NCBI GenBank assembly: GCA_009784185.1
Contig: WRCD01000005.1
Span: forward strand, 1,868-65,867
Direction: 5' to 3'
DNA from: Bacillota bacterium
GTDB lineage: Bacteria; Bacillota; Clostridia; Christensenellales; UBA1242
DNA: 64,000 nt
Numbering within the stretch: position 1 is the first letter of the stretch; each line of letters opens with the position of its first letter. Made by a program: the position numbers and the translations under genes. Below the pieces are notes generated by a model. The model did not search any database and had not been told where the DNA came from. It saw only the letters and a program-made list of their open reading frames with translations. Below, piece after piece: positions 5,209 through 62,039 of this stretch.

Positions 5209-5225
5209 AATCTACCTCAAAAAAT

Positions 5226-5314
5226 AATTCCCCTTTAAGATAAAGGGTGCCCCGGACTAGGGGCGGGGTACATACCCCGTCAGCTTCGCTGCCACCCCTC
5301 TCTAGAGGGGAATT
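5226..5314. repeat. Family-A repeat, inverted pair forming a long palindrome
   Basis: AATTCCCCTTTAAGATAAAGGGTGCCCCGGACTAGGGGCGGGGTA faces TACCCCGTCAGCTTCGCTGCCACCCCTCTCTAGAGGGGAATT. It lies just downstream of the rpsT stop. Confidence 0.85.
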
Positions 5315-5335
5315 TTTATATTATATTTAAAACTT

Positions 5336-6518: not shown

Positions 6519-6527
6519 TCTAATTAA

Positions 6528-6590
6528 AATTCCCCTTCTCCAAAGGGGGTTAACGCCGTCAGGCGGACGGGGTAGCCGCCGCAGACGCAG
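6528..6590 (+). repeat. Family-A repeat (long form with GACGGGGTAGCCGCCGC module)
   Basis: AATTCCCCTTCTCCAAAGGGGGTTAACGCCGTCAGGCGGACGGGGTAGCCGCCGCAGACGCAG. It runs into the glmS ribosome-binding region. Confidence 0.85.
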
Positions 6591-13618: not shown

Positions 13619-13631
13619 AAACTAAAGCCGT

Positions 13632-14888
13632 ATGGCTTTTTTTATTTTAGGTGCATATACCACTCCTATGATACCCGCAAGCACAATCACAGTTAGTGCA
13701 GATGCCCTAACACACAACGCAGTTACAATAAAAAGCCGGCTGCCCGCAAAAACCAAGCTTTGCGCCGTTGTAAAAGCAAATGCCTACGGGCATGGAGTAA
13801 AATTTGCCGTAACCACGCTGGAGCCGTACGCAGACTTTTTTGCCGCTGCCACCAACCATGAAGCACTGGAGGTGCGTAAACTAACCCAAAGGCCTACGCT
13901 GGTAATGGATTCGCTGAAAACATCTGCACTTGCTAAATGTTTAAAACAAAACATTCATATCTCTGTTTGCTCGCTAAACGAACTGAAAATACTGTTATCG
14001 GCTGCCAAAAAGGCAGGCACAACGGCTCAGGTTCATATCAAGCTAAACACCGGCATGAACAGGTTTGGGATTTCCGGCACAGATGAATTTAGCTGCTGCA
14101 TAAAACTCATTAAAAACCAGCCAACCCTTACACTGGCCGGTGTATATACTCATTTCGGTGCCGGTGATAACCCAAGCCACCCTCGCACGCACGGCCAAGC
14201 CAAGCGGTTTAAACAGTTTCTGGCAATACTCCCGCCGGAACTAAAACCAATAATACACGCTGCCAACACCGACACTGCGCTAAACTTCCCCCAATACGCA
14301 TTTGATATGGTTAGAGTTGGTATAGGATTATATGGGTATGGGTCAAGCACGAACCAAAATTCCCCTCCCTGGAGGGGTGGCGCAGAGCGCCGGGGTGGTT
14401 TTACCCCCGTACTTACTCTCACCTCCTACATCGCAGCCATCCAAACTGTAGCTAAAGGCCAATATATCGGCTACGGCACCGGCACAAGAGCAAAACGCAA
14501 TATGACTGTTGGCATAATCCCGCTTGGATACGCAGACGGCATTTCAAGGAGCTTATCCAACAAAGGCAAAGTAATTATATCCGGCTTACCCGCCCCTATA
14601 ATCGGCAATATCTGCATGGACAGTTTTACCGTTGACCTAACCGAAAATTCCCCAACTCCTGCGGGGTGGATGTCAAGCGTAGCGCAGACAGACGGGGTAG
14701 CCGCCGCCGAAGGCGGCGTAAAAACTTTGGCGGTCGGAACCCCCGTCACCATAATCGGCCCGGACCAAACCGCAGCCGACATAGCCGAAACACAAGGCAC
14801 TATAGCCTATGAAGTACTGACCGGTATTAATCATTGCAGAATAAATTATCAAACAAAAAATCCAAACAAAAAATCCCCTCTAAGTTAG
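13632..14888 (+). CDS. alr: Alanine racemase carrying two in-frame family-A repeat insertions
   Basis: PLP-lysine motif AVVKANAYGHG, then GIGLYGYG, PLGYADG, ICMDSFTVDLT and GTIAYEVLTGI. The ATG at 13632 lies inside the upstream terminator, so the true start may be the ATG at 13668. Confidence 0.85.
   Translation: MAFFILGAYTTPMIPASTITVSADALTHNAVTIKSRLPAKTKLCAVVKANAYGHGVKFAVTTLEPYADFFAAATNHEALEVRKLTQRPTLVMDSLKTSALAKCLKQNIHISVCSLNELKILLSAAKKAGTTAQVHIKLNTGMNRFGISGTDEFSCCIKLIKNQPTLTLAGVYTHFGAGDNPSHPRTHGQAKRFKQFLAILPPELKPIIHAANTDTALNFPQYAFDMVRVGIGLYGYGSSTNQNSPPWRGGAERRGGFTPVLTLTSYIAAIQTVAKGQYIGYGTGTRAKRNMTVGIIPLGYADGISRSLSNKGKVIISGLPAPIIGNICMDSFTVDLTENSPTPAGWMSSVAQTDGVAAAEGGVKTLAVGTPVTIIGPDQTAADIAETQGTIAYEVLTGINHCRINYQTKNPNKKSPLS
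14358..14400 (+). repeat. Family-A repeat inside alr, in frame
   Basis: AATTCCCCTCCCTGGAGGGGTGGCGCAGAGCGCCGGGGTGG, translated as NSPPWRGGAERRGG. Confidence 0.85.
14646..14725 (+). repeat. Family-A repeat (long form) inside alr, in frame
   Basis: AATTCCCCAACTCCTGCGGGGTGG..GACGGGGTAGCCGCCGCCGAAGGCGGCGTAAAAAC, translated as NSPTPAGWMSSVAQTDGVAAAEGGVKT. Confidence 0.85.
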
Positions 14889-14913
14889 AGGGGTGCCCAA
14901 CGGGCGGAGTGTG
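14871..14913 (+). repeat. Family-A repeat across the alr stop
   Basis: AAATCCCCTCTAAGTTAGAGGGGTGCCCAACGGGCGGAGTGTG. Confidence 0.8.
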
Positions 14914-14920
14914 TGTTTAA

Positions 14921-15673
14921 TTATTTCTCAAAACTCATTGGCTGGCACTTAACTATGTTGTTAAGATTTTCCACAAACTCAGGCACGCCTTGCTGGTCTG
15001 TCTGGCTTTTAATTACAACCTCTCTTACAGTCTTTTTAGCCTTATTCCAGTATCTGTTGCCGTTGGAGTCTTCCTTGTGGAAAACCTCACGGTTATACCC
15101 CTTTGCCCACAAGTCCTCGGCAGCTTTTGCAAAAAGCTCTGCATCAGCCCCTGAGGTGGTTGGACTCCATGCTTCGCCTACAATCTTACCTTTTGCATCA
15201 TACACAATCTTTACAGGTGCAGTGCCTGCAAATTCAGAAGAGTATTCGGTATTGTATGTGCCGTCTGAGTTTAACACTTTAGTTATCTTAATCTGCAACT
15301 GAGCCTGTGCACCAAGACTAAAAGGCTTACCGTCCCTTATAGCACAAACCGTAAGTGACGCCGCTTTGGAATAGGGATAAATAACAGCCGGAATACTTGC
15401 CATTATCAACTCATAATCACTCTGCCTGCTTTTTGCGTCCCCGGGGAACATTCTTGTGCTGGCCTCAACTTTTGGACCAAAATGCTCATTTAAAACACGG
15501 GTCATGTCTCCGTCTTCAAATTCAGACTTACCCTCCGGCAAACCGATTGTCACCCAATTTTTGTTATCGGAATAATCTTTATAAAGCCGTCCGATGTGAA
15601 GAGCAATAATAGTACTGTTAGATGAGTTTTTTATCCTCATCAACAATTCATTGCGCCAATCAAAATCAACCAT
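14921..15673 (-). CDS. Hypothetical protein (250 aa)
   Basis: AAGGAG lies 11 nt upstream of the ATG, and a consensus promoter lies upstream. No motif recognised. Confidence 0.6.
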   Translation of the reverse strand: MVDFDWRNELLMRIKNSSNSTIIALHIGRLYKDYSDNKNWVTIGLPEGKSEFEDGDMTRVLNEHFGPKVEASTRMFPGDAKSRQSDYELIMASIPAVIYPYSKAASLTVCAIRDGKPFSLGAQAQLQIKITKVLNSDGTYNTEYSSEFAGTAPVKIVYDAKGKIVGEAWSPTTSGADAELFAKAAEDLWAKGYNREVFHKEDSNGNRYWNKAKKTVREVVIKSQTDQQGVPEFVENLNNIVKCQPMSFEK

Positions 15674-15708
15674 ATTTATGCTACACTCCTTAATTTTTAT
15701 ACAACTTA

Positions 15709-15737
15709 AGTATACACCAGGACACCCGTGTTGTCAA
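15709..15737 (-). promoter_or_regulatory. Sigma-70-type promoter
   Basis: On the minus strand: TTGACA, 17-nt spacer, TATACT. Confidence 0.6.
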
Positions 15738-15920
15738 TATGTAAATTAAAATGTAACACATCTCTGCACTTCCACATAGTATGATAATGTGCTGGCAGGC
15801 ACTTACAAAAGATAAGCGGGAACCCCCGCTTAAACGAAGCACGTAAGAAGAATTTTTAAAATTCAAAAGATGCCGGCACATTAATGTAGTTCCGGGCCAT
15901 TACCGGCCCGTTGATATACT

Positions 15921-15950
15921 AAAAAAGCTCTCCCAGTGGGGGAGCTTTGT
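15921..15950 (-). terminator. Terminator downstream of holA
   Basis: On the minus strand: AAAGCTCCCCC-actg-GGAGAGCTTTTTT. Confidence 0.75.
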
Positions 15951-15962
15951 CTTGCTGTCATT

Positions 15963-16934
15963 TTACATACTCAATATCTCAAACACAAAACTGTTTAGCG
16001 CAACTTCGTCGCTTATCTCACCCCGCCTGATTTTAAAGTCAAGTTCTCCGCCCAGTTCTAAAATCTGCTTCAGTTGCATTTTACTAAACTTCTGTCCCGA
16101 CTTTTTAGCCATTTTAATTGCGTAATCCTTTACCCCAAGCGCACGCGCAACATCCGCGTCACTTGCAGCCTGAGTACAGGCATAAAACATACGCCTGAAA
16201 GCAGCCAGCACAAGAACCAAAATGCTTTGCGCACTTTCTTTATCGGCCAGCATTGCGCCCACAATCTCCATTGCCCGAACCGCATTCTTGTTTGCAATTG
16301 TGTCCGCCAGCTCGTATGCCACATATTCTATATCTTTTGTTACGTTGTCTGTTACGGTTTGCAAGCCAACCTGTCCGCCGCTGCCGGCAAGTGCAGCAAG
16401 CTTAATTGCTTCAACCTCAATTCTGGCAAGGTTAAAACTGCAATACTGTATTAACAAATCAAGCGCTTGCGGTTCAATTGCTACTTTATCTTTTGCAAAA
16501 AAAGACTGTGTTACCTTTTTAAGCAGCGGCAAATCCAGCTTATTGCAGTCCACTACACATACGCCGGCCGCAGCAGTCTTGTAAAACCCGTCGTCCGGTT
16601 CCGCAACCAAAACAAGGCAAGCCGACGGAACCGGGCTTGTAATATAATCAGCCAGAAGCTTTTTGTTAGACTCCGTCTTTTTGGGCTCCCAGTCTTTTAC
16701 TATTACCAGCCTGAACTCGTCCATCATTGGCAGAGTTAAGCAAGCATTAACAACATCACTAAATTCCGCAGCCTCACTGGTAAACTTAACCATATTAAGG
16801 TCAGGCATATTGGGCACACAGCGCTCGGTAATAAGCCTTACCGCCGCCGCACGCAGATACAAGTCATCACCGGTAACTAAATACACGGGCTCTGCCTTAG
16901 TTTTTAAACTCTGCTTTAAATCCGCAAATTTCAT
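15963..16934 (-). CDS. holA: DNA polymerase III subunit delta
   Basis: MKFADLKQSLKTKAEPVYLVTGDDLYL. It lies next to comEC, and rpsT also lies in this window, as in the Firmicute comEC-holA-rpsT arrangement. The track start at 17054 adds 40 aa read from a family-A repeat, so I rejected it. Confidence 0.8.
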   Translation of the reverse strand: MKFADLKQSLKTKAEPVYLVTGDDLYLRAAAVRLITERCVPNMPDLNMVKFTSEAAEFSDVVNACLTLPMMDEFRLVIVKDWEPKKTESNKKLLADYITSPVPSACLVLVAEPDDGFYKTAAAGVCVVDCNKLDLPLLKKVTQSFFAKDKVAIEPQALDLLIQYCSFNLARIEVEAIKLAALAGSGGQVGLQTVTDNVTKDIEYVAYELADTIANKNAVRAMEIVGAMLADKESAQSILVLVLAAFRRMFYACTQAASDADVARALGVKDYAIKMAKKSGQKFSKMQLKQILELGGELDFKIRRGEISDEVALNSFVFEILSM

Positions 16935-16973
16935 AAAACTATAATACCATGTTTTGACAGCAAAAGCAATAAA

Positions 16974-17098
16974 AATTCCCCTTCTCCGAAGGGGTGGACG
17001 CGAAGCGGACGGGGTAGCCGCCGCCAAAGGCGGCGCAAAAACTCGGATTACCACAACCCCCGGCGCTCTGCGCCACCCCCTTAGCTTAAGGGGGAATT
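16974..17098. repeat. Family-A repeat, inverted pair (long form + short form)
   Basis: AATTCCCCTTCTCCGAAGGGGTGGACGCGAAGCGGACGGGGTAGCCGCCGCCAAAGGCGGCGCAAAAAC ... CGCCACCCCCTTAGCTTAAGGGGGAATT. Confidence 0.85.
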
Positions 17099-17111
17099 TT
17101 TACAAACCAAA

Positions 17112-18722
17112 TTACACAATAACCTGCATCAGCACAAACTCCACCGCACAAATCCCAAACAATACACCGGCACTTATCATTTTAATCTTTGGCAGCAGCA
17201 AGCAAAACCGGCTTGCCGCAAATATTCCCACATAATAACAGACTGTGCCTATAAACGGCTTCAGGTACAGCTCCGCCACCGCAAACGGCCACTTTGCTAT
17301 CCATGCGGTTATCCAGTCTAAAAGCAGGTAGCCGTAGCTCGGCAGTTTTAAAATGTACGGCATCCACGGCAGAAACCAGCTGGTGAGCAAACACACTATC
17401 AGCATAACCGCAGTAACACAATACACAATTCCAAACAGCGGAACAACCACAAGGTTGGTCAGCAATGTGTAAATAGGAAACGTTCCGAAAAACATAATAA
17501 TCAGCGGAGCGGTACCGATAGTTGCGGCCAGGGTTACAGCAATTGTGCTTGATAAAAACTTAGGCAAAAACCTGAACCAGGACATAAATATAGGCATCAG
17601 TAAAAAGATACAGAACACACTGGCAAACGATAACAAAAACCCAAGATTAAACGCATACAACGGTGCAAACAACAGAATTAATATGCCCGCCAGACTCACA
17701 CTGCTAAGCGGGTCATATTGTTCTCCAAAACAACGCCCGAGCAGAATGAATACCGCCATAAGGCTTGCCCGCAGCACGCTGGGCGACAGTCCGCAAATAA
17801 TGCAGTAAAAGAGCAAAAACGCCGCAACAATTACGGTCTGCCATTTTACGCTTAACTTGCATCTGACTAACAACCACATCAGCATAAGCACAATAAAACC
17901 AACGTGCAGGCCCGATATTGCAATTAAGTGCGCAACTCCCGTGTCCCTAAAGTTGTCACGCATTTCCATGTCTATACCGCTTCTGTCACCAAGCAGCACG
18001 GCTAAAGCAAATCCGCCGTATTTATTGCCCATGCCCTGCCTTAAGATATTGCCAACATAGCCGGTTATCTTTTCAGTAAAATTCTTTTCACCCGCCTCTA
18101 AAAACTTTACATCGGTAAAATGCGCGGTTGCCGCATAAAGCGTATTGTCAGCATACGAAAAGCCGTTTATGCTCCCGTCTTCCTCAAAAACAGGCGTGGA
18201 TTCAATTCGGGATGCAAACCAGATTTTATTGCCTGCCTGCAGTCCGAAAACAGCCGCCTCTTCGGTTGCATTATTTAAAAACACCGTCAGACGCAGTTTT
18301 TCTTTTATATGAGTCTGCTGGAAGTTGTATTCCGCAACAACATCACGCAGGCGGATATACATTACCTTTTCCCGCACAAGCGGAGTGCCGTCTATCACTC
18401 CGGTTATTTCATACATATGCCCTACAGGATATCCGCCCGGCGTAAAACCGGCTTCGGATGTGGCTTTAACTATAAAAAACATAGGCTGAGCAATCAATAT
18501 TACTGCCAGACCCAAAACCAGCACTTTTCCGGCTGCTTTCATCTGTGTTTTAAGCACTGCACTTTTCCATGGCACAAAACAAACAGCAAGTGCAGCCGCA
18601 CCAACTCCTATTACTATTAAAATCACCCACCAGCCTGCTATGCCGGCAAGCCCCGCCGTAAACAGCCCCGCAAGCAGTGCAACAAACACAACCAGCAGCG
18701 GACGGAAATGCGCAAATTTCAT
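17112..18722 (-). CDS. comEC: ComEC/Rec2-family DNA internalisation channel (no C-terminal metallo-beta-lactamase domain evident)
   Basis: LLGDRSGIDMEMRDNFRDTGVAHLIAISGLHVGFIV competence motif, with many TM helices. It is 536 aa, shorter than the full-length ComEC I remember. Confidence 0.8.
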   Translation of the reverse strand: MKFAHFRPLLVVFVALLAGLFTAGLAGIAGWWVILIVIGVGAAALAVCFVPWKSAVLKTQMKAAGKVLVLGLAVILIAQPMFFIVKATSEAGFTPGGYPVGHMYEITGVIDGTPLVREKVMYIRLRDVVAEYNFQQTHIKEKLRLTVFLNNATEEAAVFGLQAGNKIWFASRIESTPVFEEDGSINGFSYADNTLYAATAHFTDVKFLEAGEKNFTEKITGYVGNILRQGMGNKYGGFALAVLLGDRSGIDMEMRDNFRDTGVAHLIAISGLHVGFIVLMLMWLLVRCKLSVKWQTVIVAAFLLFYCIICGLSPSVLRASLMAVFILLGRCFGEQYDPLSSVSLAGILILLFAPLYAFNLGFLLSFASVFCIFLLMPIFMSWFRFLPKFLSSTIAVTLAATIGTAPLIIMFFGTFPIYTLLTNLVVVPLFGIVYCVTAVMLIVCLLTSWFLPWMPYILKLPSYGYLLLDWITAWIAKWPFAVAELYLKPFIGTVCYYVGIFAASRFCLLLPKIKMISAGVLFGICAVEFVLMQVIV

Positions 18723-23391: not shown

Positions 23392-23424
23392 CGGATTTTA
23401 GAGAAATTAAAACACTTTTTCATA

Positions 23425-23469
23425 TACCCCGTCGGCTCCGCCGCCACCCCTTTATCTTAAAGGGGAATT
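23425..23469 (-). repeat. Family-A repeat (reverse orientation)
   Basis: TACCCCGTCGGCTCCGCCGCCACCCCTTTATCTTAAAGGGGAATT. Confidence 0.85.
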
Positions 23470-23487
23470 TTGGGTGATTTTTTGAGC

Positions 23488-24282: not shown

Positions 24283-24447
24283 TATATTCCCATTTAAAGA
24301 GGGATGTCACCTGGTGACGGGATACAGTGTGCTAATAGTTTCCTCTATTTCACAAGCAATATTACCACAAAACCACGCAAAAGTCAAACTTATACGGAAA
24401 AAACCCGCAAACAAATATCAGATATCAAATGTCAGATATCAGTTGAA

Positions 24448-24575
24448 GGTCGCTGACGCTCCAAAAAGATGTGGCAGCGAAGTGACGGGGGATGTGATTT
24501 GCGAAGGCACCTAACAGACCACGTCAGCTTTGCTAGCCACATCTTTAGTTATTAAGTATTAAGTGCTTTTGGTTT
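24448..24575 (+). repeat. Family-B long hairpin (copy B1) with flanking modules; left arm of ~125-bp inverted repeat
   Basis: GGTCGCTGACGCTCC, then stem AAAGATGTGGCAGCGAAGTGACG, loop GGGGATGTGATTTGCGAAGGCACCTAACAGACC, stem CGTCAGCTTTGCTAGCCACATCTTT, then (ATTAAGT)n. Confidence 0.85.
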
Positions 24576-25205
24576 TACAATTACCTTAATCAGCGCAAAC
24601 AGCAGTGCCGCAAAAACCCCTACAAAAAATGCGCCCAGCATATATGTAACAAAGTCCTGAAACACCGTACATACCGCTACCATAAATATGCCCGTTATCA
24701 GGTTGCCCGCAAGCAGTGCTAATAAAGACTTCCAGAATCCTAAGCCCAGTATCAGCGCAACCAGGCAGCCGGCGTATATCCCGCTAAACGGCAGCGGCAG
24801 CGCAACAAACAGCACCACACCTATTATCTTATAAAAATCTATCATTGCCGGATTATGCTTTTTGCCGGCACGTTCTGCTGCCTTGCCCTCAATCTTGGTT
24901 TTGCTCTTACGCAACTTCTTGTCAAACTCATCAACTGCTTTTCTAAACAGCCTGGTATTGCGCAGCCGGTTCATAATCGGCAATCCTATTAATAGTATCA
25001 CCGGCATAATTACGCATGAACCAAGATACCCCCAAAAAAACGCCGCAAACGGGCTCATGGCATTAGCTCCCCAAATTTCGGCCGACATCCCAAACGGGAT
25101 AGCGGTATGAAACTCCAGCATAGGAAGCGCAGATACAATCATAACCGCAAGCCAGTTAGCCTGCCCGAATACCGAAACCAGAAACTCCGTAACCCACTCA
25201 AACAT
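24552..25205 (-). CDS. Small multidrug export protein family (Sm_multidrug_ex-like) membrane protein
   Basis: LPMLEFHTAIPFGM .. a K-rich loop .. ALPLPFSGIYAGCLVALILG fits the COG2426-type two-half topology. The track start at 25226 is a GTG inside the flanking repeat, so I prefer the ATG at 25205. Confidence 0.65.
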   Translation of the reverse strand: MFEWVTEFLVSVFGQANWLAVMIVSALPMLEFHTAIPFGMSAEIWGANAMSPFAAFFWGYLGSCVIMPVILLIGLPIMNRLRNTRLFRKAVDEFDKKLRKSKTKIEGKAAERAGKKHNPAMIDFYKIIGVVLFVALPLPFSGIYAGCLVALILGLGFWKSLLALLAGNLITGIFMVAVCTVFQDFVTYMLGAFFVGVFAALLFALIKVIVKPKALNT

Positions 25206-25227
25206 GCTGTATTCTATGCGGAGCACT

Positions 25228-25375
25228 TAATACTTAATACTTAATAACTAAAGATGCGGCTAGCAAAGCTGACGCGGTCTGTTAGGTGCCTTCGCAAATC
25301 ACATTCCCCGTCACTTCGCTGCCACATCTTTTTGGAGCGCCAGCGACCTATACTTGTTCCCTGTTCCCTGTTCAC
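25228..25375 (-). repeat. Family-B long hairpin (copy B2, inverted) + GGAGCGCCAGCGACC + heptamer array D2
   Basis: The reverse complement matches 24448-24575 with a few substitutions and one extra ATTAAGT unit. It ends in CTTGTTC CCTGTTC CCTGTTC AC. Confidence 0.85.
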
Positions 25376-25812: not shown

Positions 25813-25825
25813 AATTTTTCTCCTT

Positions 25826-25869
25826 AATATTCCCCTCTGCAAGAGGGGCGCCCGAAGGGCGGGGTGTGG
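25826..25869 (+). repeat. Family-A repeat
   Basis: AATATTCCCCTCTGCAAGAGGGGCGCCCGAAGGGCGGGGTGTGG. Confidence 0.85.
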
Positions 25870-25921
25870 TTAATGGGTTTATTGTAACAGATTTCTAGCC
25901 TGTTGGCAAGCAAAAGAATGT

Positions 25922-25962
25922 AATTCCCCTAGCCACGGAGGGGTGCCCGAAGGGCGGGGTGG
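25922..25962 (+). repeat. Family-A repeat
   Basis: AATTCCCCTAGCCACGGAGGGGTGCCCGAAGGGCGGGGTGG. Confidence 0.85.
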
Positions 25963-25973
25963 TTTAAAACAAA

Positions 25974-33305: not shown

Positions 33306-33357
33306 AGGCCACTTCCAAATATCTCGGCTTCATGTTTTCCATATATGCTCCTCGTAT

Positions 33358-33417
33358 AATTCTCCCTTCCCGCCAAGGGAGTACGCCCGGAGGGCGGGGT
33401 GGTTTAAAAGGGGAATT
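33358..33417. repeat. Family-A repeat
   Basis: AATTCTCCCTTCCCGCCAAGGGAGTACGCCCGGAGGGCGGGGTGGTTTAAAAGGGGAATT. Confidence 0.8.
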
Positions 33418-33838: not shown

Positions 33839-33857
33839 GTCTGCTCCTTTCCGTATC

Positions 33858-33981
33858 AATTCCCCTTTATGAAGGGGTGGATGCGCCATAGGCGCAGACG
33901 GGGTAGCCGTCACCAAAGGTGGCGCAAAAGCTTTTTCACATACCCCGCCCTTCGGGCACCCCTTTATCTTAAAGGGGAATT
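33858..33981. repeat. Family-A repeat, inverted pair (long + short form)
   Basis: AATTCCCCTTTATGAAGGGGTGGATGCGCCATAGGCGCAGACGGGGTAGCCGTCACCAAAGGTGGCGCAAAAGC ... TACCCCGCCCTTCGGGCACCCCTTTATCTTAAAGGGGAATT. Confidence 0.85.
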
Positions 33982-33995
33982 ACAACGGGAATTTT

Positions 33996-35266: not shown

Positions 35267-35340
35267 GCGGGCGTAGCTTAATGGTAAAGTTCCAGCCTTC
35301 CAAGCTGGCTATGTGAGTTCGATTCTCATCGCCCGCTCCA
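35267..35340 (+). tRNA. tRNA-Gly (TCC)
   Basis: Acceptor GCGGGCG/CGCCCGC, anticodon loop CTTCCAA, CCA encoded. Confidence 0.9.
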
Positions 35341-35346
35341 AAATTT

Positions 35347-35421
35347 AGGGGTGTAGCCAAGCGGTAAGGCTCCAGACTCTGACTCTGGCATGCGGAGGTT
35401 CAAATCCTTCCACCCCTGCCA
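35347..35421 (+). tRNA. tRNA-Gln (CTG)
   Basis: AGGGGTGTAGCCAAGCGGTAAGGC.., anticodon loop CTCTGAC, CCA. Confidence 0.9.
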
Positions 35422-35430
35422 ACAATTTAT

Positions 35431-35507
35431 GGTGGATATAGCTTAGCAGGTAGAGCGCCAGGTTGTGGCCCTGGAGGTCGTGGGTTCGAATCCCACTATT
35501 CACCCCA
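35431..35507 (+). tRNA. tRNA-His (GTG) with encoded G-1
   Basis: Extra 5' G, anticodon loop TTGTGGC, T-arm GTGGGTTCGAATCCCAC, CCA. Confidence 0.9.
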
Positions 35508-35523
35508 CTATTCGCCCCGATGT

Positions 35524-35600
35524 GCGCCCGTAGCTCAGCAGGATAGAGCAACGCCCTTCTAAGGCGTAGGTCGGGGGTTCGACTCCCTCCGGGCGTGCCA
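35524..35600 (+). tRNA. tRNA-Arg (TCT)
   Basis: GCGCCCGTAGCTCAGCAGGATAGAGC.., anticodon loop CTTCTAA, CCA. Confidence 0.9.
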
Positions 35601-35603
35601 TAT

Positions 35604-35679
35604 GACCCATTAGCTCAGTCGGTAGAGCACTTGACTTTTAATCAAGTTGTCCCGCGTTCGAATCGCGGATGGGTCACCA
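35604..35679 (+). tRNA. tRNA-Lys (TTT)
   Basis: GACCCATTAGCTCAGTCGGTAGAGC.., anticodon loop CTTTTAA, CCA. Confidence 0.9.
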
Positions 35680-35689
35680 AGAAACTCTA

Positions 35690-35772
35690 GCGGATGTGGC
35701 GAAATTGGCAGACGCGCCAGACTTAGGATCTGGTGGGCAACCGTGGGGGTTCAAGTCCCTCCATCCGCACCA
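35690..35772 (+). tRNA. tRNA-Leu (TAG)
   Basis: Type-II tRNA GCGGATGTGGCGAAATTGGCAGACGC.., anticodon loop CTTAGGA, long variable arm, CCA. Confidence 0.9.
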
Positions 35773-35889
35773 ACATAGTCCTAAGGTTGGAGGACTTGAA
35801 CGGGCAAGGGCGCTGCCGGCGGCAGATGAAGCCCGCAGCCCAGGCGTGAAAGTGCCGAAGGCACGGAGCAAGTCCCTCCATCCGCACCA
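35773..35889 (+). other. Structured ~96-nt insert followed by an exact 21-nt duplicate of the tRNA-Leu 3' end
   Basis: CAAGTCCCTCCATCCGCACCA occurs at 35752-35772 and again at 35869-35889. An inverted partial copy GGAGGACTTGAAC at 35789-35801 can pair with the second copy. Internal hairpins are CTGCC-ggc-GGCAG and GTGCC-gaa-GGCAC. Confidence 0.7.
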
Positions 35890-36050
35890 ATGCAGTTATA
35901 AGGTGTATGACCGCAGGCGGTCATACAACCCGTCGGCGCTCGCAAACGAGCACTGCGTGCCCGCAATTTTTGAAAATCTGTTTTTGTCCGCAAGCGCCCA
36001 AAAGCAAATTTTCACAATTTGCGCGCTTCGCGTTGGATTTGCTCGCTTCT

Positions 36051-36125
36051 AGGGGTGTAGCCAAGCGGTAAGGCACAAGACTTTGACTCTTGCACGCGTT
36101 GGTTCAAATCCAGCCACCCCTGCCA
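36051..36125 (+). tRNA. tRNA-Gln (TTG)
   Basis: AGGGGTGTAGCCAAGCGGTAAGGC.., anticodon loop CTTTGAC, CCA. Confidence 0.9.
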
Positions 36126-36708: not shown

Positions 36709-37941
36709 ATGTACATGAACAACACTAAAATTGCATCAGCCAGACCCAGATACACTAAAAGCACACTTGCACTGGGTGCAAGCGTTTTAGATTATTGCGG
36801 AGTAAAAACAAAACTGCCTAAGCTTGGCAGGGTTAGGTCTGCTCTGAAGAAAAACTACAAAAACGTTGTGTTTTTAATTTTGGACGGCCTCAATACATTA
36901 AGTCTGCAGGAGCTTCTGCCGGCCGATTCTCTTCTCAGAAAAAACCTGAAAGGCAGCCTGACATCGGTTTTCCCGTCTACAACCGCGTGCGGTTTAACCA
37001 CTTTGTTTACGGCAGGCTACCCTGCTGCGAATGGCTGGCTGGGGCAAAAGATGTACATAGAGCAACTAGATAAGGTTATTGACATATACAAAAACACCTG
37101 CGCATACACCGGAGTCAGCCTTAAAGACGATGACTATTACGAGAGCTATCTGCCGCCTGCTACCATATTTTCTCAAATTGAAGCCATGCAGAAACCACAA
37201 ATAAAAATACATACCCTTACCCCGCAAAAAACCCGTAACATTGCCGAAAACAACTATTACTACTCCGACATGGCCGAAATGTATACGGTGCTTAACAAAA
37301 TGACCCGGCAAAACGGCAGAAAAGCAATTATTGCGTATGCACCGCATTTGTCTAAAGCAATGAGCACCCATGGCACAGCTTCGGGCCAAGCCGAAGCAGT
37401 TCTGCAAGAACATGAACTGTATTTAGCCGAACTGATGGAAAAAGCCGGTGATACATTGTTTATTGTGTCGTCCGGCCACGGAATGATTAATATCCAAAAC
37501 AACATCCATTTAGAAGACTATCCGGAAATCTGTGCTACATTCAACAGACCTCCGTCCGTTTGCAGCCGCGCAATCAGCTTTGGAATAAACAAGTTAAGCC
37601 GCAAACAATTTGCGCGTCTGTTTAACCACCACTTCAGCACGGATTTTAAACTGTACACTGCAAAACAAATAGTTGCCGGCGGCTTGCTTGGTAAAGATGC
37701 TTGTCCGTGTCTGGATTTACTTATAGGCGATTTTATTGCAGTTGCAAAAGCCAACTCTGCAATGCATTACAAAACACCCAAAGGGGTTGAGCCGAAAATT
37801 ACAATAGCCTCCAGCGGCGGACTCTCCAAACAGGAAATGCTTTTACCGTTAATAATTTTTGGAAAGAAAAAGAAATCCAGTAAAAAGAAAGCGCCTCAAA
37901 ATTCCCCTTCCCTGCGAAGGGGTGGCAAGCCGAAGGCTTGA
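36709..37941 (+). CDS. Alkaline-phosphatase-superfamily phosphodiesterase / nucleotide pyrophosphatase-like protein
   Basis: VVFLILDGLNTLSL and SVFPSTTACGLTTLFTAGYPAANGW give the metal-binding Asp and nucleophile Thr region. The last ~15 aa (NSPSLRRGGKPKA) are read from a family-A repeat. Confidence 0.7.
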   Translation: MYMNNTKIASARPRYTKSTLALGASVLDYCGVKTKLPKLGRVRSALKKNYKNVVFLILDGLNTLSLQELLPADSLLRKNLKGSLTSVFPSTTACGLTTLFTAGYPAANGWLGQKMYIEQLDKVIDIYKNTCAYTGVSLKDDDYYESYLPPATIFSQIEAMQKPQIKIHTLTPQKTRNIAENNYYYSDMAEMYTVLNKMTRQNGRKAIIAYAPHLSKAMSTHGTASGQAEAVLQEHELYLAELMEKAGDTLFIVSSGHGMINIQNNIHLEDYPEICATFNRPPSVCSRAISFGINKLSRKQFARLFNHHFSTDFKLYTAKQIVAGGLLGKDACPCLDLLIGDFIAVAKANSAMHYKTPKGVEPKITIASSGGLSKQEMLLPLIIFGKKKKSSKKKAPQNSPSLRRGGKPKA

Positions 37942-37970
37942 CGGGGTAGCCGCCGCCAAACGCGGCGCAA
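37900..37970 (+). repeat. Family-A repeat (long form) overlapping the 3' end of the phosphodiesterase ORF
   Basis: AATTCCCCTTCCCTGCGAAGGGGTGGCAAGCCGAAGGCTTGACGGGGTAGCCGCCGCCAAACGCGGCGC. Confidence 0.85.
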
Positions 37971-38012
37971 AAAAAGCAGCCATAGCTGCTTTTTTTATTT
38001 TGCTCAAAATTA

Positions 38013-46304: not shown

Positions 46305-46336
46305 ATGTATTTATAATATCCTAATTTTGCTTCTAT

Positions 46337-46468
46337 AATTCCCCTCTATAAGAGGGGTGGATACGACCGAGTAAAACGAGAGAGTAGACGGGGTGTGGCA
46401 GTAAAGCAATCAGTTTGAGCAACCACACCCCGTCGGCTGCGCCGCCACCCCTCTTATAGAGGGGAATT
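46337..46468. repeat. Family-A repeat, inverted pair with ~50-nt centre
   Basis: AATTCCCCTCTATAAGAGGGGTGGATACGACCGAG..GACGGGGTGTGGCAG...CCACACCCCGTCGGCTGCGCCGCCACCCCTCTTATAGAGGGGAATT. Confidence 0.85.
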
Positions 46469-46484
46469 TTCGTTTCATATCTGC

Positions 46485-47039: not shown

Positions 47040-47100
47040 GTGTTGTGTTCTCCTAGGCCTTATATTATCAAAGTACCACAAAAAACACAAGCAGATTAAA

Positions 47101-47139
47101 CCACCCCGCCCTTTGGGCACCCCTCCAAGGAGGGGAATT
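47101..47139 (-). repeat. Family-A repeat (reverse orientation)
   Basis: CCACCCCGCCCTTTGGGCACCCCTCCAAGGAGGGGAATT. Confidence 0.85.
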
Positions 47140-47194
47140 TTTGTACTGAAAAGCCACCAGCAACGCTGATGGCTTTTCACCGTACTGCCCAGAA

Positions 47195-49539: not shown

Positions 49540-49555
49540 AAGTTACCTCCATATA

Positions 49556-49673
49556 AATTCCCCTCTACAAGAGGGGTGCCACGGAGTGGCGGGGTGTGGT
49601 TGGTTGAAAAGTCTTTGCGCAGCCACACCCCGTCAAACCTGACGGTTTGCCACCCCTCTTATAGAGGGGAATT
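49556..49673. repeat. Family-A repeat, inverted pair
   Basis: AATTCCCCTCTACAAGAGGGGTGCCACGGAGTGGCGGGGTGTGG ... CCACACCCCGTCAAACCTGACGGTTTGCCACCCCTCTTATAGAGGGGAATT. Confidence 0.85.
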
Positions 49674-49680
49674 ATTTACA

Positions 49681-51006: not shown

Positions 51007-51027
51007 AGATGTACTCCTTAATCAAAT

Positions 51028-51088
51028 AATTCCCCTTTTATGAAGGGGTGGCAGCCGCAGGCTGACGGGGTAGCCGCCCGAAGGGCGC
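51028..51088 (+). repeat. Family-A repeat (long form)
   Basis: AATTCCCCTTTTATGAAGGGGTGGCAGCCGCAGGCTGACGGGGTAGCCGCCCGAAGGGCGC. Confidence 0.85.
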
Positions 51089-51178
51089 ATAACCTTATGA
51101 AATCATACCAAATTAAACTACAAAACACAATTAAAACATCTTATAAAATATTCCATTCCACCGAAGTTCCGTTATCAT

Positions 51179-51222
51179 ATACCCCGCCGCTTCGTGGCAC
51201 CCCTTTATCTTAAAGGGGAATT
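51179..51222 (-). repeat. Family-A repeat (reverse), overlapping the 3' end of the feoB-like ORF
   Basis: ATACCCCGCCGCTTCGTGGCACCCCTTTATCTTAAAGGGGAATT. Confidence 0.85.
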
Positions 51223-52593
51223 TTTGCACTTTCCACAGTTCGTACATTTATGCCGAGTTATCAGCATAAACACCGCAACCGTCACCAACAGAATTATAAA
51301 CGCCGCAAACAGCAGCCCGGCAAAATCCCCGTTAAAAGCCGCACACGCAATTTTATATGACAGGAACGAAAACAAATACGCCGCAGCAAACTGTATGCCC
51401 ATCGCCACCCATGCAAGCTGCTTCCCAACCTGACGCCGGAGACTTACAATAGCCGCAATGCAAGGGATACTAAGCAATACAAAAACCAAAAACGACACTA
51501 CAGCTTCAGGCGTAAAACTTACGCTCAACACGCCCAGACAAGACACAATGGCCTCCTTAGCAACCAAGCCGCAAAGCATTGCGGATACCGCTCCCCAGTT
51601 TCCCCACCCGAGCGGAACAAAAACAGGTGCCAGAATCATGCCTATTTGCTGCAGCATACTTATTTCCAAATCCGGGTCGGAGATGTAAACAAACCCGAAA
51701 GTAAAGTTTTGCAACACCCAAACAAGAACCGTAAGACTTAACACAACTGTTCCGACCCTTTCCGTAAAGTGACGGGCAGCATCGGCAGCCGATTTTGCCA
51801 CAGCTTTTATACTGGGCAACTTGTATGGCGGCACGCTGTCATTGCGAGTCCGCCCAACAGAGACGGGCAAGCGAAGCAATCCTTCGGACAGAAGCACCAA
51901 TCTTTGGGATTGCTTCGTTTGAAGGAGTATCAGGTCCGTCTCGCAATGACAGTTCGCCACACTTCTTAAGAGAAGCTTGTCCATTATCCACGCCAACAAC
52001 ATGGCAACCGCAACTCCCAGCAGATACAATCCAAAAACCAGCACCCAATTGCCCGCCCCAAAAAACGCACCGCCCAGCACCACATAAACCGGCAGTTTTG
52101 CACTGCAGGACATATATGGTGTAAGTATTGCGGTTTTGATTCTTACACTTTTATTTTCAATATTCTTTACTGTAGGAATTGCCGTTGTAGTACAGCCAAA
52201 CCCCATAAGTAAGGTAAACGCACTTTGCCCGCTTAATCCAACTTTAGAAAAAAACTTATCAAAAACGCGGGCAACCCGTGCCAGATACCCTGTCTGCTCC
52301 AAAACGCCAAGACAAACAAACAACAGCACAATCTGCGGCAGAAATGCAATAACCATTCCCGCCCCTCCAACCACCGCATCACGAACCAGCGCAATTATCC
52401 AGATTGGAGCGTTTATTGCAATAACCAGGTCAACCAGATACCCGCCAACAATCCTAACCACCACAAATTCAAAGCAGTACGACAAAAACGCCCCAAACGG
52501 CCCGAATGTAATAAAAAATATAATAAGCATTACCAACAAGAATATGGGCAACGCTAAATACTTGTTTAGGAATATCTTGTCGGGATTAATCAC
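51205..52593 (-). CDS. feoB: FeoB-type transporter, membrane (Gate/nucleoside-recognition) portion only, with an in-frame family-C repeat
   Basis: LEQTGYLARVARVFDKFFSKVGLSGQSAFTLLMGFGCTTTAIP .. LTPYMSCSAKLPVYV is the FeoB core. The ORF has no G-domain, and the 78-nt gap to nrdR leaves no room for one upstream. Confidence 0.7.
   Translation of the reverse strand: MINPDKIFLNKYLALPIFLLVMLIIFFITFGPFGAFLSYCFEFVVVRIVGGYLVDLVIAINAPIWIIALVRDAVVGGAGMVIAFLPQIVLLFVCLGVLEQTGYLARVARVFDKFFSKVGLSGQSAFTLLMGFGCTTTAIPTVKNIENKSVRIKTAILTPYMSCSAKLPVYVVLGGAFFGAGNWVLVFGLYLLGVAVAMLLAWIMDKLLLRSVANCHCETDLILLQTKQSQRLVLLSEGLLRLPVSVGRTRNDSVPPYKLPSIKAVAKSAADAARHFTERVGTVVLSLTVLVWVLQNFTFGFVYISDPDLEISMLQQIGMILAPVFVPLGWGNWGAVSAMLCGLVAKEAIVSCLGVLSVSFTPEAVVSFLVFVLLSIPCIAAIVSLRRQVGKQLAWVAMGIQFAAAYLFSFLSYKIACAAFNGDFAGLLFAAFIILLVTVAVFMLITRHKCTNCGKCKNSPLR
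51837..51951 (-). repeat. Family-C element inside the feoB-like gene (core inverted relative to the copy at 40826)
   Basis: TGTCATTGCGAG ... CTCGCAATGACA. The reverse complement shares the identical 33-nt core TCAAACGAAGCAATCCCAAAGATTGGTGCTTCT. Translated as [38 protein letters not shown]. Confidence 0.85.
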
Positions 52594-52622
52594 CCATTAG
52601 TGTATTTGAGGCTCCACAATAA

Positions 52623-52664
52623 AATTCCCCTCTATAAGAGGGGTGCCCGAAGGGCGGGGTGTGG
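52623..52664 (+). repeat. Family-A repeat
   Basis: AATTCCCCTCTATAAGAGGGGTGCCCGAAGGGCGGGGTGTGG. Confidence 0.85.
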
Positions 52665-52671
52665 ATAAAAG

Positions 52672-53225: not shown

Positions 53226-53344
53226 AATTCCCCTTACTTTACTTTCGCCACACCCCGCCACTAAAAGGGGCAGTCCGGAGTGTCGGGGGATGTGATTTGC
53301 GAAGGCACCTAACAGACCCTGACAGCTCCGGACTGCCCCTTTTG
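53226..53344 (+). repeat. Degenerate family-A unit followed by family-B long hairpin (copy B3)
   Basis: AATTCCCCTTACTTT..CACCCCGCC, then stem AAAAGGGGCAGTCCGGAGTGTCG, loop GGGGATGTGATTTGCGAAGGCACCTAACAGACC, stem CTGACAGCTCCGGACTGCCCCTTTT. Confidence 0.85.
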
Positions 53345-54963: not shown

Positions 54964-54982
54964 CAGGAATTATACAACAAAA

Positions 54983-55094
54983 AATTCCCCCTTGAGCCAA
55001 GGGGGTGGCACGAAGTGCCGGGGGTTGTGGTAAATTAACATAACACAACCCTCCCCGCTAGGCTAGCGGTACTCCCTTAGCTTAAGGGAGAATT
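54983..55094. repeat. Family-A repeat, inverted pair
   Basis: AATTCCCCCTTGAGCCAAGGGGGTGGCACGAAGTGCCGGGGGTTGTGG ... CCTCCCCGCTAGGCTAGCGGTACTCCCTTAGCTTAAGGGAGAATT. Confidence 0.85.
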
Positions 55095-55151
55095 TTAGCG
55101 TGTGCTATAATCGTTTTGCGACTTCCCTCTTTTATGCTATATTAAATTAAA

Positions 55152-55913: not shown

Positions 55914-55916
55914 CCA

Positions 55917-56043
55917 AAGGGGTATGCGGAGTTACGGGGGATGTGTTTTGCGAAGGCACGTAACAGACCCTGTAAGCTCCGCGTACCCCTTTAGGAGCAA
56001 AGCGACCCTTAGTTGTTACTTGTTACCTGTTCCTTGTTCCCTG
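55917..56043 (+). repeat. Family-B long hairpin (copy B4) + GGAGCAAAGCGACC + heptamer array D5
   Basis: Stem AAAGGGGTATGCGGAGTTACG, loop GGGGATGTGTTTTGCGAAGGCACGTAACAGACC, stem CTGTAAGCTCCGCGTACCCCTTT, then GTTGTTA CTTGTTA CCTGTTC CTTGTTC CCTG. Confidence 0.85.
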
Positions 56044-56046
56044 ATT

Positions 56047-56766
56047 TTACATCAACTTTGCTATATCCTTTTTCATTCTGGCAAGAATCTTTTTCTCTAT
56101 TCTTGAGATATAGCTTTGAGATATGTTCAGCACATCCGCAACCTCTTTCTGCGTCATTTCATCCTTGCCGCCTAAACCAAACCGAAGTGTTACAATCTCC
56201 CGTTCGCGGGCATTCAGTCTGTTTACGGTTGCGGTTAAAATTGAGTGCTCTACCGAGGTTTCAATGTTTTTAAACACTTCCTCGGCATCCACTCCAATAA
56301 TATCGCCCAGCAGCAGCTCATTACCGTCGGAATCAAAACTAAGCGGCTTATCAAGCGAAATTTCCTTTTTCTGCTTCTGACTCTTTCGCAAATACATTAA
56401 TATCTCGTTTTCAATACACCTGCTGGCATAAGTTGCCAGCTTTATGTTTTTATCCACATCAAAAGTGTTTACCGCCTTAATAAGCCCGATACTGCCAACC
56501 GAAATTAAATCCTCCTGCTCTAAGCCGGTGTTTTCAAATTTTTTAGCAATATAAACCACCAGCCGCAGATTATGCTCAATCAGCACAACCTTGGCAGACT
56601 CATCTCCTGCTTTTAGCTTTAATAGATACTCCCGCTCCGCTTCCGTCTCCAGCGGATTTGGCAGTGCTTCGTTCCCGCACAGATAGTTAATAAGGTCCGT
56701 ATCCAAACTCTCCAGCTGAAAACGCGTTAACTTATTAATAAAACTAAGAACTAAACTTTTTAGCAT
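56047..56766 (-). CDS. sigE: Sporulation sigma factor SigE (pro-sigma-E)
   Basis: YLCGNEALPNPLETEAEREYLLKL .. IEHNLRLVVYIAKKFENTG .. EDLISVGSIGLIKAVNTF .. KLATYASRCIENEILMYLR. Confidence 0.9.
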   Translation of the reverse strand: MLKSLVLSFINKLTRFQLESLDTDLINYLCGNEALPNPLETEAEREYLLKLKAGDESAKVVLIEHNLRLVVYIAKKFENTGLEQEDLISVGSIGLIKAVNTFDVDKNIKLATYASRCIENEILMYLRKSQKQKKEISLDKPLSFDSDGNELLLGDIIGVDAEEVFKNIETSVEHSILTATVNRLNAREREIVTLRFGLGGKDEMTQKEVADVLNISQSYISRIEKKILARMKKDIAKLM

Positions 56767-56779
56767 AACGCCCCCTTTT

Positions 56780-56909
56780 CAGGTAACAAGTAACAGGTAA
56801 CAGGGAACAACTATTGGTCGCTACGCTCCGATATTAATTGGAACGAAGTGACCCACCGTTGTTACCTGTTCCCTGTTACCTGCTCCCTGTTCCCTGCTCC
56901 CTGTTCCCC
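56780..56909. repeat. Inverted heptamer arrays D6/D7 with central GGTCGCTACGCTCC module
   Basis: CAGGTAACAAGTAACAGGTAACAGGGAACAAC .. GGTCGCTACGCTCC .. GTGACCCACC GTTGTTA CCTGTTC CCTGTTA CCTGCTC CCTGTTC CCTGCTC CCTGTTC CCC. Confidence 0.85.
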
Positions 56910-60798: not shown

Positions 60799-62039
60799 TT
60801 ATCTTCCCTTTTTCTCTTTCTTCAGTTTTCTGAGAAACGGCGGGATGTCCGCATCATCCACTTTATATCTTGATGAGCCCGCATCCTTGCCGCCGGTCTG
60901 CCGGTCTGCAGCTTCTTCGGCCATTTCAACTTCACGCTCATCATAACTGGATTGATTTGTTTTGCCGCTGCCGATTCTGCCGGCTAAAAATTCGGCGTAC
61001 TTCTTCTGCGAATACTCTTTAGCACTCTCCTCAACCGGGTTAGCTTTTTCATCCTTCTTTTCTAATAGTCCCGGTCCGGCAAAGCCGGTTGCAATAACGG
61101 TAATCTCAACCGTATCTTCAAGAGTGTCGTCTACACTTGCCCCAAAAATAATGTTACAGCTTGGGTCAACAAGGTCACGCATAAGGTCGGCTGCCTCATA
61201 TACCTGGTCAAGCGGAAGGTCCATGCCGCCCTTAACGTTAAATATAATGCCGGTTGCGCCTTCAATACTCGTCTCAAGCAGCGGACTGTTAACCGCCTGG
61301 CTCAGCGCCTCAAAAATCTTTCTGTCGCCTTTAGCCCGGCCAATACCCATATGCGCATGACCGCGGTTTTTCATAATGGTGCGCACGTCGGCAAGTCCAG
61401 ATTGATAAGTGAATTCTGGATAATCAGGTTGCTTATGCCTTGCACGCCTTGCCTCAGCACATCGTCGGCGTATCTAAACGTATCTACAATGCTTGTACCT
61501 TTCGGCACCAGCTTAAACAACTTCTCGTTTGGAATTATTACAAGGCTGTCTACCACCTTGCGCAATGCATCAATGCCGTTTTCGGCATTTTCCATTCTCC
61601 TGCGCCCTTCAAAATTAAACGGCTTGGTTACAACCGCAATTGTAAGAATCTCTTTTTCACGGCTTAAGTTTGCTATCAGCGGAGCCGCACCCGTGCCTGT
61701 TCCGCCGCCCATGCCTGCGGTAATAAACACCAAATCGGCATCGTTAAGCGCCTGGTCAAGCTCTGCCTGATTTTCCTCGGCTGCTTTTAATCCAACAATC
61801 GGGTCGGCGCCCGCACCCCAGCCGCGTGTAAGTTTTATGCCAATCTGAATACGATAATCGGCCTTGCTGACCTGCAATGCCTGTTTGTCGGTATTAACCG
61901 CAATAAACTCCACGCCTGAAACTCCTGCATTAACCATCCGGTCAATTGCATTACCTCCGCCTCCGCCTACGCCAATAACCTTAATCTTAATTACCGGAGT
62001 AACCGAGTTTCCTCCTGAATACGAGCTGTAACCGTTCAT
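60799..62039 (-). pseudogene. ftsZ: Cell division protein FtsZ, split by a 1-nt frameshift (or sequencing error)
   Basis: ORF 61371-62039 carries [21 protein letters not shown] and [10 protein letters not shown] and ends in [15 protein letters not shown] 60799-61386 continues as (AD)[27 protein letters not shown]. Changing GACTTGCC to GACTTTGCC near 61392 restores LINLDFADVRTIM. Confidence 0.85.

Follow-up and report, generated by a model that had tools for sequence, protein, structure and literature searches.

In a 64,000-nucleotide stretch of a Bacillota genome (contig WRCD01000005.1, positions 1,868 to 65,867; called the window from here on, with all positions counted from its first letter), the alanine racemase gene alr carries three copies of a short hairpin repeat, two of them inside the gene and in frame and the third over its stop codon. 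Our reading, to which we give a probability of roughly 0.7, is that alr was colonised three times by a selfish repeat, that the enzyme it codes for is likely to be working, and that the repeats form the ends of a mini-element built around a DUF559 gene.

Repeat copies inside the alanine racemase gene

The repeat, which we refer to as family A, is modular and was found by repeat finding and pattern scans. Its unit comprises a first hairpin (hairpin 1, CCCCTCC / GGAGGGG), the dinucleotide TG, a second hairpin (hairpin 2) of variable sequence and conserved pairing, and a tail, (A)CGGGGTGG. Written out, the layout is AATTCCCCT(CC)-loop-(GG)AGGGGTG, followed by the variable second hairpin and then by (A)CGGGGT(G/A)(G/T). 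The lineage of the window also has a long form, to which a third hairpin, GTAGCCGCCGCC-AAAG-GCGGCGC, has been added.

The open reading frame (ORF) at 13632 to 14888 on the forward strand codes, as called, for an alanine racemase of 418 amino acids. The protein matches the Pfam families Ala_racemase_N (8e-57) and Ala_racemase_C (1.8e-34), reaches 290.6 bits against the NCBIfam equivalog TIGR00492 (cut-off, 168) and matches 49 solved racemases, the best with an E value of 2e-47. A protein with exactly this sequence has been deposited as 'MAG: alanine racemase [Firmicutes bacterium]', MAG standing for metagenome-assembled genome. The ORF stays open through all three repeat copies (Table 1), which share a single reading frame, with AAT TCC CCT read as N-S-P. 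Covariance model R1, used to detect the copies, was built on 32 of them, 28 taken from other genomes or viral contigs, four from elsewhere in the window, and none from alr. As it gives the alr copies E values between 1.4e-17 and 9.6e-8, they are far beyond chance. An earlier note on this DNA, made from the letters alone, had described an ORF that stays open over two internal copies and a third one spanning the stop codon; the model bears out both internal copies, the stop codon does lie within the third, and the peptides quoted for the two inserts were right.

Copy 1 is made up of AATTCCCCTCC-CTG-GAGGGGTG / GCGC-AGA-GCGC / CGGGGTGGTTTT. In copy 2, hairpins 1 and 2 are degenerate and the third hairpin reads GCCGCCGCC-GAAG-GCGGCG; the section from 14691 to 14726 belongs to the direct-repeat family D4. 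Copy 3 supplies the last codons of the gene, and on the minus strand its hairpin 1 and a T-run form a terminator-like site (14893 to 14875) for the convergent gene at 14921 to 15673.

The two nearest relatives of the window protein, P0002 and P0003, are 49% and 48% identical to it, and as their contigs share the gene order alr-holA-comEC with the window, they are true orthologues. Neither insert is present in the Alr proteins P0002 and P0003, and we detected no repeat copies in 9.1 kb of the orthologous contigs (L002 and L003). The net gain of the window gene relative to these two is 13 and 24 codons. When ten further homologues are included, insert 1 corresponds to 13 extra residues after GYGSSTNQ and insert 2 to 24 extra residues after VDLTE, and the C-terminus is longer as well. 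At the codon level the inserts are NSPPWRGGAERRG(G) and NSPTPAGWMSSVAQTDGVAAAEGG, respectively. The final 8 nt of copy 2 (GTAAAAAC, V-K-T) align with a native I-K-N of an orthologue and may therefore be original alr sequence. The first insert had been placed directly after GIGLYGYG in the earlier note; it actually begins five residues further on. We infer that the direction of events was insertion into the window alr and not loss in its relatives. Native loops that came to resemble the repeat by convergence were rejected on the basis of the covariance-model E values and of the orthologues; homologous loops of equal length in repeat-free orthologues, which the earlier note had named as evidence against insertion, are missing from the closest ones.

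The inserts could also be artefacts, with repeat copies mis-joined into alr during short-read metagenome assembly. The contig does come from a short-read MAG (it has a k141 name), near-identical repeats are very numerous on it, and it has at least one frameshift that is probably an error. However, the flanks of each insert are colinear and in frame with the orthologous alr, the three copies are distinct from one another as well as from the remaining copies, and a mis-join would rearrange the flanks instead of giving clean additions of 39 and 72 nt. The same phenomenon appears in independent assemblies and in isolates, and we regard an artefact as very improbable.

Both inserts are located where alanine racemases vary in length. 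Insert 1 follows the last barrel helix and precedes the first strand of the C-terminal domain, in a loop of 22 amino acids (family median, 12; range, 6 to 25), and insert 2 separates two strands of that domain, in a loop of 31 amino acids versus a median of 7. This agrees with the earlier note, which had placed them at inter-strand or junction regions. Two unrelated Alr homologues, P0064 and P0076, have low-complexity inserts of 68 and 100 amino acids exactly at the insert 2 site, so this turn is generally permissive in alanine racemases.

The conserved part of the enzyme is intact. The lysine that binds pyridoxal 5'-phosphate (PLP), K48, is retained together with Y281, R144, H174, R228, and M329, all the residues invariant in 76 Alr homologues are present, and so is D330, invariant in a 13-sequence alignment. 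An AlphaFold model computed with the 76-sequence alignment gives a confident Alr fold with the expected two domains, with a mean predicted local distance difference test score (pLDDT) of 89.9 and a predicted template modelling score (pTM) of 0.88. Confidence is low only at residues 1 to 9, about 241 to 259, about 341 to 367, and in the C-terminal tail, so that both inserts, for which such modelling had been proposed as a check, come out as low-confidence stretches in an otherwise confident fold. Among the top 50 Foldseek matches of the model, 46 chains are alanine racemases and 4 are VanT serine racemases, and the target-normalised template modelling (TM) score against solved racemases ranges from 0.83 to 0.92.

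Concerning the start of the gene, a perfect terminator-like hairpin at 13624 to 13639 (AAAGCCGTATGGCTTT and then a T-run) contains the annotated start codon. Since codons 1 to 12 overlap this hairpin and the model has low confidence there, the true start may be the ATG at 13668 (M13).

An open frame over a single copy is by itself not unlikely, and how often it would arise by chance can be estimated. Depending on the frame, 56 to 92% of the repeat copies lack a stop codon, 75% in the N-S-P frame used in alr. Given this 75% and a prior of one-third for a net length divisible by three, the chance that both inserts are open and in frame without selection is about 0.06. The natural explanation of the open frame is that only in-frame insertions survive in an essential gene. 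In the alternative scenario, the alr copy is inactive or decaying, its frame is open by chance, and D-alanine comes from a second racemase or a D-amino-acid transaminase coded outside the window. A value of 0.06 is not negligible, insert 2 closely follows the active-site Met-Asp motif ICMD, the ftsZ gene of the same window is frameshifted, and only part of the genome was seen. These points are countered by the intact ORF, by the retention of the residues invariant in the 76 homologues, by a score well over the TIGR00492 cut-off, by the confident fold outside the inserts, by other Alr proteins that bear long inserts at both sites, and by the lack of a second alr in the 64-kb window, and we consider an inactive gene unlikely. 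The evidence supports the first of the two alternatives of the earlier note, tolerated surface loops, with the invariant residues kept, a confident fold, and sites that accept length changes. Most likely, the enzyme still works with two disordered surface loops and a C-terminal tail encoded by the repeat; its activity is a prediction, and tolerated insertion is more likely than an inactive copy.

We propose the following sequence of events. A small, selfish hairpin repeat, of which this genome has unusually many copies, would have entered alr three times. As most copies are stop-free in any frame, an insertion with a net length that is a multiple of three merely adds a peptide rich in Pro and Gly, and the insertions that survived would be only those that kept the frame and landed in length-tolerant loops.

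Structure and spread of the repeat family

The 64-kb window contains 25 full copies at E < 1e-3, that is, about one per 2.6 kb; 14 of them form seven tail-to-tail pairs, and 11 are solo (Table 1). Within the window, alr is the only gene in which copies have coding sequence on both sides, and three genes, alr included, have their stop codon inside a repeat copy. The called HolA (DNA polymerase III delta subunit, 15963 to 17054 on the minus strand) has 363 amino acids versus 323 in both orthologues; the 40 extra N-terminal amino acids (..APPLAAATPSASRPPLRRRGIF..) are there because a stop-free repeat pair is read through. No glmS ribozyme was detected in the whole window.

Table 1. Family A repeat copies of the window detected with covariance model R1.
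Feature	Positions	Strand	Details
alr repeat copy 1	14354..14402	+	Short form, near consensus; 56.2 bits, E 1.4e-17; encodes N243-F257
alr repeat copy 2	14642..14725	+	Long form; 29.5 bits, E 9.6e-8 (14642-14704); encodes N339-T365
alr repeat copy 3	14867..14916	+	34.1 bits, E 1.9e-9; gives last alr codons (..KKSPLS) and TAG stop 14886-14888
Tail-to-tail pair	5222..5318		+ then -; intergenic
Solo long form	6524..6590	+	Directly upstream of glmS; degenerate third hairpin overlaps AGGAGG ribosome-binding site
Tail-to-tail pair	16970..17102		Long form +, then short form -; between holA and comEC
Solo copy	23420..23473	-	
Two direct copies	25824..25966	+	25824-25871 and 25918-25966
Degenerate solo copy	33354..33406	+	
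Tail-to-tail pair	33854..33985		
Solo long form	37896..37975	+	Contains stop codon of gene ending at 37941
Tail-to-tail pair	46333..46472		
Solo copy	47097..47143	-	
Tail-to-tail pair	49552..49677		
Tail-to-tail pair	51024..51226		Spacer of ~100 nt; minus copy contains stop of gene 51205-52596 (-)
Solo copy	52619..52666	+	
Tail-to-tail pair	54979..55098		Variants: arms CCCCCTT, CTCCCTT with tails GGGGGTT, GAGGGTT

The hairpins are backed by covariation. In the 32-copy alignment 92% of the cells are paired, positions of hairpin 2 show up to four pair types, and 60 cells have changed on both sides, versus 18.5 in shuffled alignments, none of 500 shuffles reaching 60. Family A is thus a multi-copy interspersed palindromic repeat, with 25 copies and hairpins kept by compensatory change.

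The tail follows a different rule. The seven bases that come after hairpin 2 correspond to the purine arm of hairpin 1 taken in reverse, each G being matched by G and each A by A or T. This mirror rule is obeyed in 223 (97%) and 210 (92%) of 229 copies at the two variable positions, versus 63% and 68% expected from base frequencies. The combinations of arm and tail are CCCCTCC/GGGGTGG, CCCCTTC/GGGGTAG, CCCCTCT/GGGGTGT, CCCCTTT/GGGGTAT, CCCCCTT/GGGGGTT, and CTCCCTT/GAGGGTT, and the matching tail was found in 238 of 272 hairpins, as compared with 30 of 272 with the pattern of another arm type. Watson-Crick pairing of the 5' arm with the tail was rejected, the relation being parallel and not antiparallel. 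The rule coincides with that of a purine-motif triple helix (G.G-C, A.A-T, T.A-T), in which hairpin 2 could act as the fold-back linker. We keep the triplex as a hypothesis drawn from base patterns, as inheritance within subfamilies inflates the counts, and the mirror rule points to a structure at the DNA level.

The repeat is widespread. An exact pattern, AATTCCCCT-N(4-12)-AGGGGTG-N(8-32)-CGGGGT, matched 37 viral-contig stretches and at least 120 genome stretches, from isolates, MAGs, and viral contigs. The hosts belong to well over ten phyla. Bacteroidota are represented, with Chryseobacterium, Pedobacter, and Daejeonia as cultured members, and so are Bacillota, Chlamydiota, Planctomycetota, Verrucomicrobiota, Cyanobacteria, Patescibacteria, Acidobacteriota, Nitrospirota, Thermotogota, Ignavibacteriota, and several Proteobacteria. 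Features that the pattern does not demand recur among the matches: in 85% of them hairpin 2 forms a stem of 4 bp or longer, versus 23% of shuffles, and hairpin 1 is longer by two pairs in 74%, where about 6% would be expected. In 95%, the tail core is followed by GG, AG, or GT. A metagenome scan for the lineage-specific long form gave no match.

Copies inside genes are not restricted to alr. The loci that we fetched contain 213 copies and 35 overlaps in which a copy lies well inside an ORF of at least 200 codons, and many of these ORFs are supported by Pfam as real genes. A whole repeat-DUF559-repeat unit is read in frame in a type I HsdR and in two type ISP restriction enzymes (L133:983-4918, L087:684-3539, and L053:2508-4175), and the other in-frame hosts are a phage DNA polymerase A, portal-MuF fusions, a ClpP-like protease, a YgiQ radical SAM protein, and a 2275-amino-acid helicase. 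Forward copies in these genes mostly read NSPP.EGW.., which is the alr frame; one exception was noticed.

The family appears to be undescribed. At the gathering threshold, Rfam returned only tRNAs for the whole window, and a permissive search over 14300 to 17150 gave only matches at chance level. In the library of papers searched, 11-mers of the repeat retrieved primer coincidences only, and no description of such an element was found there among papers on DUF559 or on repeats and endonucleases.

The DUF559 partner gene and related elements

DUF559 is a very common domain of unknown function. A gene with this domain adjoins repeat copies in 11 of the 157 loci found via the repeat and is bracketed by inverted copies in seven of them. 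The partner protein, which comes from other genomes and lies outside the window, matches PF04480 at 5.6e-28, has 3HRL as its nearest solved structure, and falls in the Vsr/DUF559 clade. The 120 closest homologues are 59 to 97% identical to the query, and those with a named source come from several phyla. In 115 of these 120, the C-terminus reads ..NHPALTGTPPxEGN, a peptide encoded by the reverse strand of the repeat and frequently present as a tandem array. At two loci fetched via DUF559 proteins, one copy abuts the start codon and the other overlaps the 3' end, and both genes are located inside type I restriction-modification operons; at L161 and L162, the DUF559 gene lies between hsdM and hsdS. 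Together with the units read in frame in restriction genes, this suggests that the element prefers restriction-modification loci. With PADLOC, the DUF559 protein obtained no meaningful match to a defence system.

In all seven pairs of the window the copies are oriented arrow to arrow, as they are around DUF559, which is how gene-less deletion derivatives would look. In the mini-element that we propose, the sole gene would be the DUF559 endonuclease (Vsr-like, of the PD-(D/E)XK type), the repeats would be its ends, and the solo copies and tail-to-tail pairs of this genome would be derivatives that have lost the gene. We infer that the endonuclease drives the spread of the repeat. A more specific proposal, which we put forward tentatively and consider doubtful, is that family A is the non-autonomous form of an undescribed pan-bacterial, phage-borne element that would combine a DUF559/Vsr-like gene of about 130 amino acids, two-hairpin ends, a triplex-clamped hairpin in single-stranded DNA, and a largely stop-free sequence that would enable it to reside in coding regions such as alr, restriction enzyme genes, and the polymerase and portal genes of phages.

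Several points weigh against the reading given at the start. The nearest orthologues are only about 50% identical to the window Alr, so the limits of the inserts are precise only to within a few codons. The assembly cannot be taken as free of errors, since ftsZ (60799 to 62039 on the minus strand), an essential gene, is split by a frameshift into the overlapping ORFs 61371 to 62039 and 60799 to 61386, owing either to an assembly or sequencing error or to a real disruption. A second alr/dadX or a D-amino-acid transaminase route may exist outside the 64 kb examined. The DUF559 gene is absent from the window, and its link to the repeat is one of physical association; the nuclease could instead home into pre-existing repeat pairs. 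No filled and empty versions of one site were found in close relatives; for the phage portal-MuF gene, the viral-contig relatives available for an empty-site comparison were either identical or very distant.

A host function for the repeats must also be weighed. They could be regulatory elements, such as terminators or mRNA stabilisers, or the alr copies could have been recruited as such, the DUF559 link being incidental. With copies oriented as in alr, hairpin 1 has its strong terminator-like face on the antisense strand, where the hairpin and an A/T run fit the pattern of intrinsic terminators; copies are found at gene 3' ends and between convergent genes, their structure is kept through covariation, and repetitive extragenic palindromic sequences (REPs) have often been proposed as RNA elements (PMC3733652). 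Nevertheless, the same sequence occurs over well over ten phyla and in viral contigs and yet is absent from close relatives, one specific small nuclease gene is flanked by copies and has its 3' end formed by them, no regulatory logic is obvious for copies inside ORFs, and the mirror-repeat covariation is not a feature of RNA terminators. A regulatory origin therefore appears improbable to us, and we favour a selfish repeat tied to DUF559.

Palindromic repeats that lie in frame in genes are already known, both as Rickettsia palindromic elements (RPEs) and as intragenic REPs, so alr adds one more case to a kind that is known: in alr and in other genes, an in-frame copy has conserved protein on both sides. 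RPE-1 to RPE-10 are given in PMC10969869, after Ogata et al. 2000, as palindromic repeats found in frame in unrelated, often essential, genes. As described there, they resemble family A in adding a peptide without breaking the ORF, at sites judged compatible with the fold. Unlike RPEs, which belong to one genus, family A is found in a Firmicute MAG, in many phyla, and in phages, and its unit is shorter (about 45 to 80 nt), consists of two hairpins and a tail, and is tied to DUF559.

REPs tagged with CGTC or GTAG come closer. Their intragenic copies encode 20 to 30 amino acids in several species (Di Nocera et al. 2013, PMC3733652). Like them, family A consists of short palindromes, possibly with unpaired tags, that often occur as inverted dimers near gene 3' ends and sometimes provide stop codons. 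On the reverse strand hairpin 2 reads ..CGT(C)-stem-loop-stem-CCA.., which resembles CGTC REPs. The reverse complement of CGTC, GACG, precedes the tail in 61% of 229 copies, its C usually being the first base of the stem, and GTGG, the reverse complement of CCAC, occurs in 65%. GTAG is present only in the GGGGTAG subtypes, and the gene found between copies is DUF559. The differences are equally clear. The REP-like hairpin is here one module of a composite with hairpin 1 and the mirrored tail. CGTC REPs have a stem of 8 to 9 bp that starts with two A-T pairs and a loop of 4 to 5 nt, whereas most hairpin 2 stems are of 4 to 7 bp, rich in GC, with a 3-nt loop, and only the variant from Chryseobacterium follows the CGTC stem rule. 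Dimers are tail-to-tail in family A and mostly head-to-head in CGTC REPs. Finally, family A has a consistent gene partner, and this link to DUF559 is of interest because CGTC REPs are reported to have no dedicated transposase (PMC3733652).

The possibility that the Neisseria DUF559 gene of the 3HRL family is flanked by dRS3 (CGTC-1) was rejected, as this is not so in L177 and L178. There, the gene (L177:2840-3560 and L178:2840-3560) occupies the variable carA-carB spacer and is flanked by direct repeats with another CGTC-tagged hairpin, CGTC-CTCTCTCCC-CGT-GGGAGAGAG, at their end. In L178, dRS3 copies were seen nearby and none at the DUF559 gene.

[quoted passage not shown] In contrast to MITEs, the single unit has no terminal inverted repeats, the candidate parent is a Vsr-like nuclease and not a transposase, and no clear target-site duplication was seen at the A/T-rich flanks of the copies, so that family A does not qualify as a MITE. 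As for homing endonucleases of the Vsr-like (EDxHD) type, such as I-Bth0305I (PMC3239194, PMC2677866), the partner is likewise in the Vsr/DUF559 clade of PD-(D/E)XK nucleases (PMC3424549), behaves like a selfish gene spread by horizontal transfer, and can sit in host genes. Unlike these, the DUF559 gene is bracketed by hairpin repeats and apparently not carried in a group I intron or an intein, for the features of which no search was made, and it is read through in some restriction genes.

Other repeats of the window and implications

The window contains further repeats. Inverted repeats of 118 nt (24447 to 24564 and 25232 to 25349), 97% complementary, flank a 224-amino-acid ORF similar to small multidrug export proteins (24552 to 25226), and related segments of 50 to 66 nt are found at 53265 to 53330 and 55916 to 55981; this is a second repeat family and possibly an invertible or mobile cassette. 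A third family consists of AGCGACCCACCGTTG followed by heptamer-periodic runs of GTTCCCT/GTTACCT, about 40 nt each, with copies at 18831, 25342, 45528, 52663, 56001, and 56847, and inverted copies of it (55994 to 56044 and 56779 to 56829) flank a gene for a sigma-factor-like protein (56047 to 56766). Seven tRNA genes are clustered at 35267 to 36122, among them 35347 to 35418 and 36051 to 36122, which are 88% identical over a 77-nt repeat spanning them.

If our reading of alr holds, it would be a clean case outside Rickettsia in which an essential cell-wall enzyme has taken in selfish repeats in the form of surface loops, and it marks two sites of a drug target where insertions are tolerated. 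The repeat also pollutes protein databases, with NSPPLEGW.. and ..TPPxEGN peptides and false N-terminal extensions. The mirror-repeat covariation predicts an unusual DNA triplex. The association with DUF559 provides a testable candidate both for the function of this domain and for the spread of tag-bearing REPs that have no transposase, and if the nuclease acts on the folded repeat, it may be the long-missing mobilising enzyme of CGTC-type REPs and of some RPEs.

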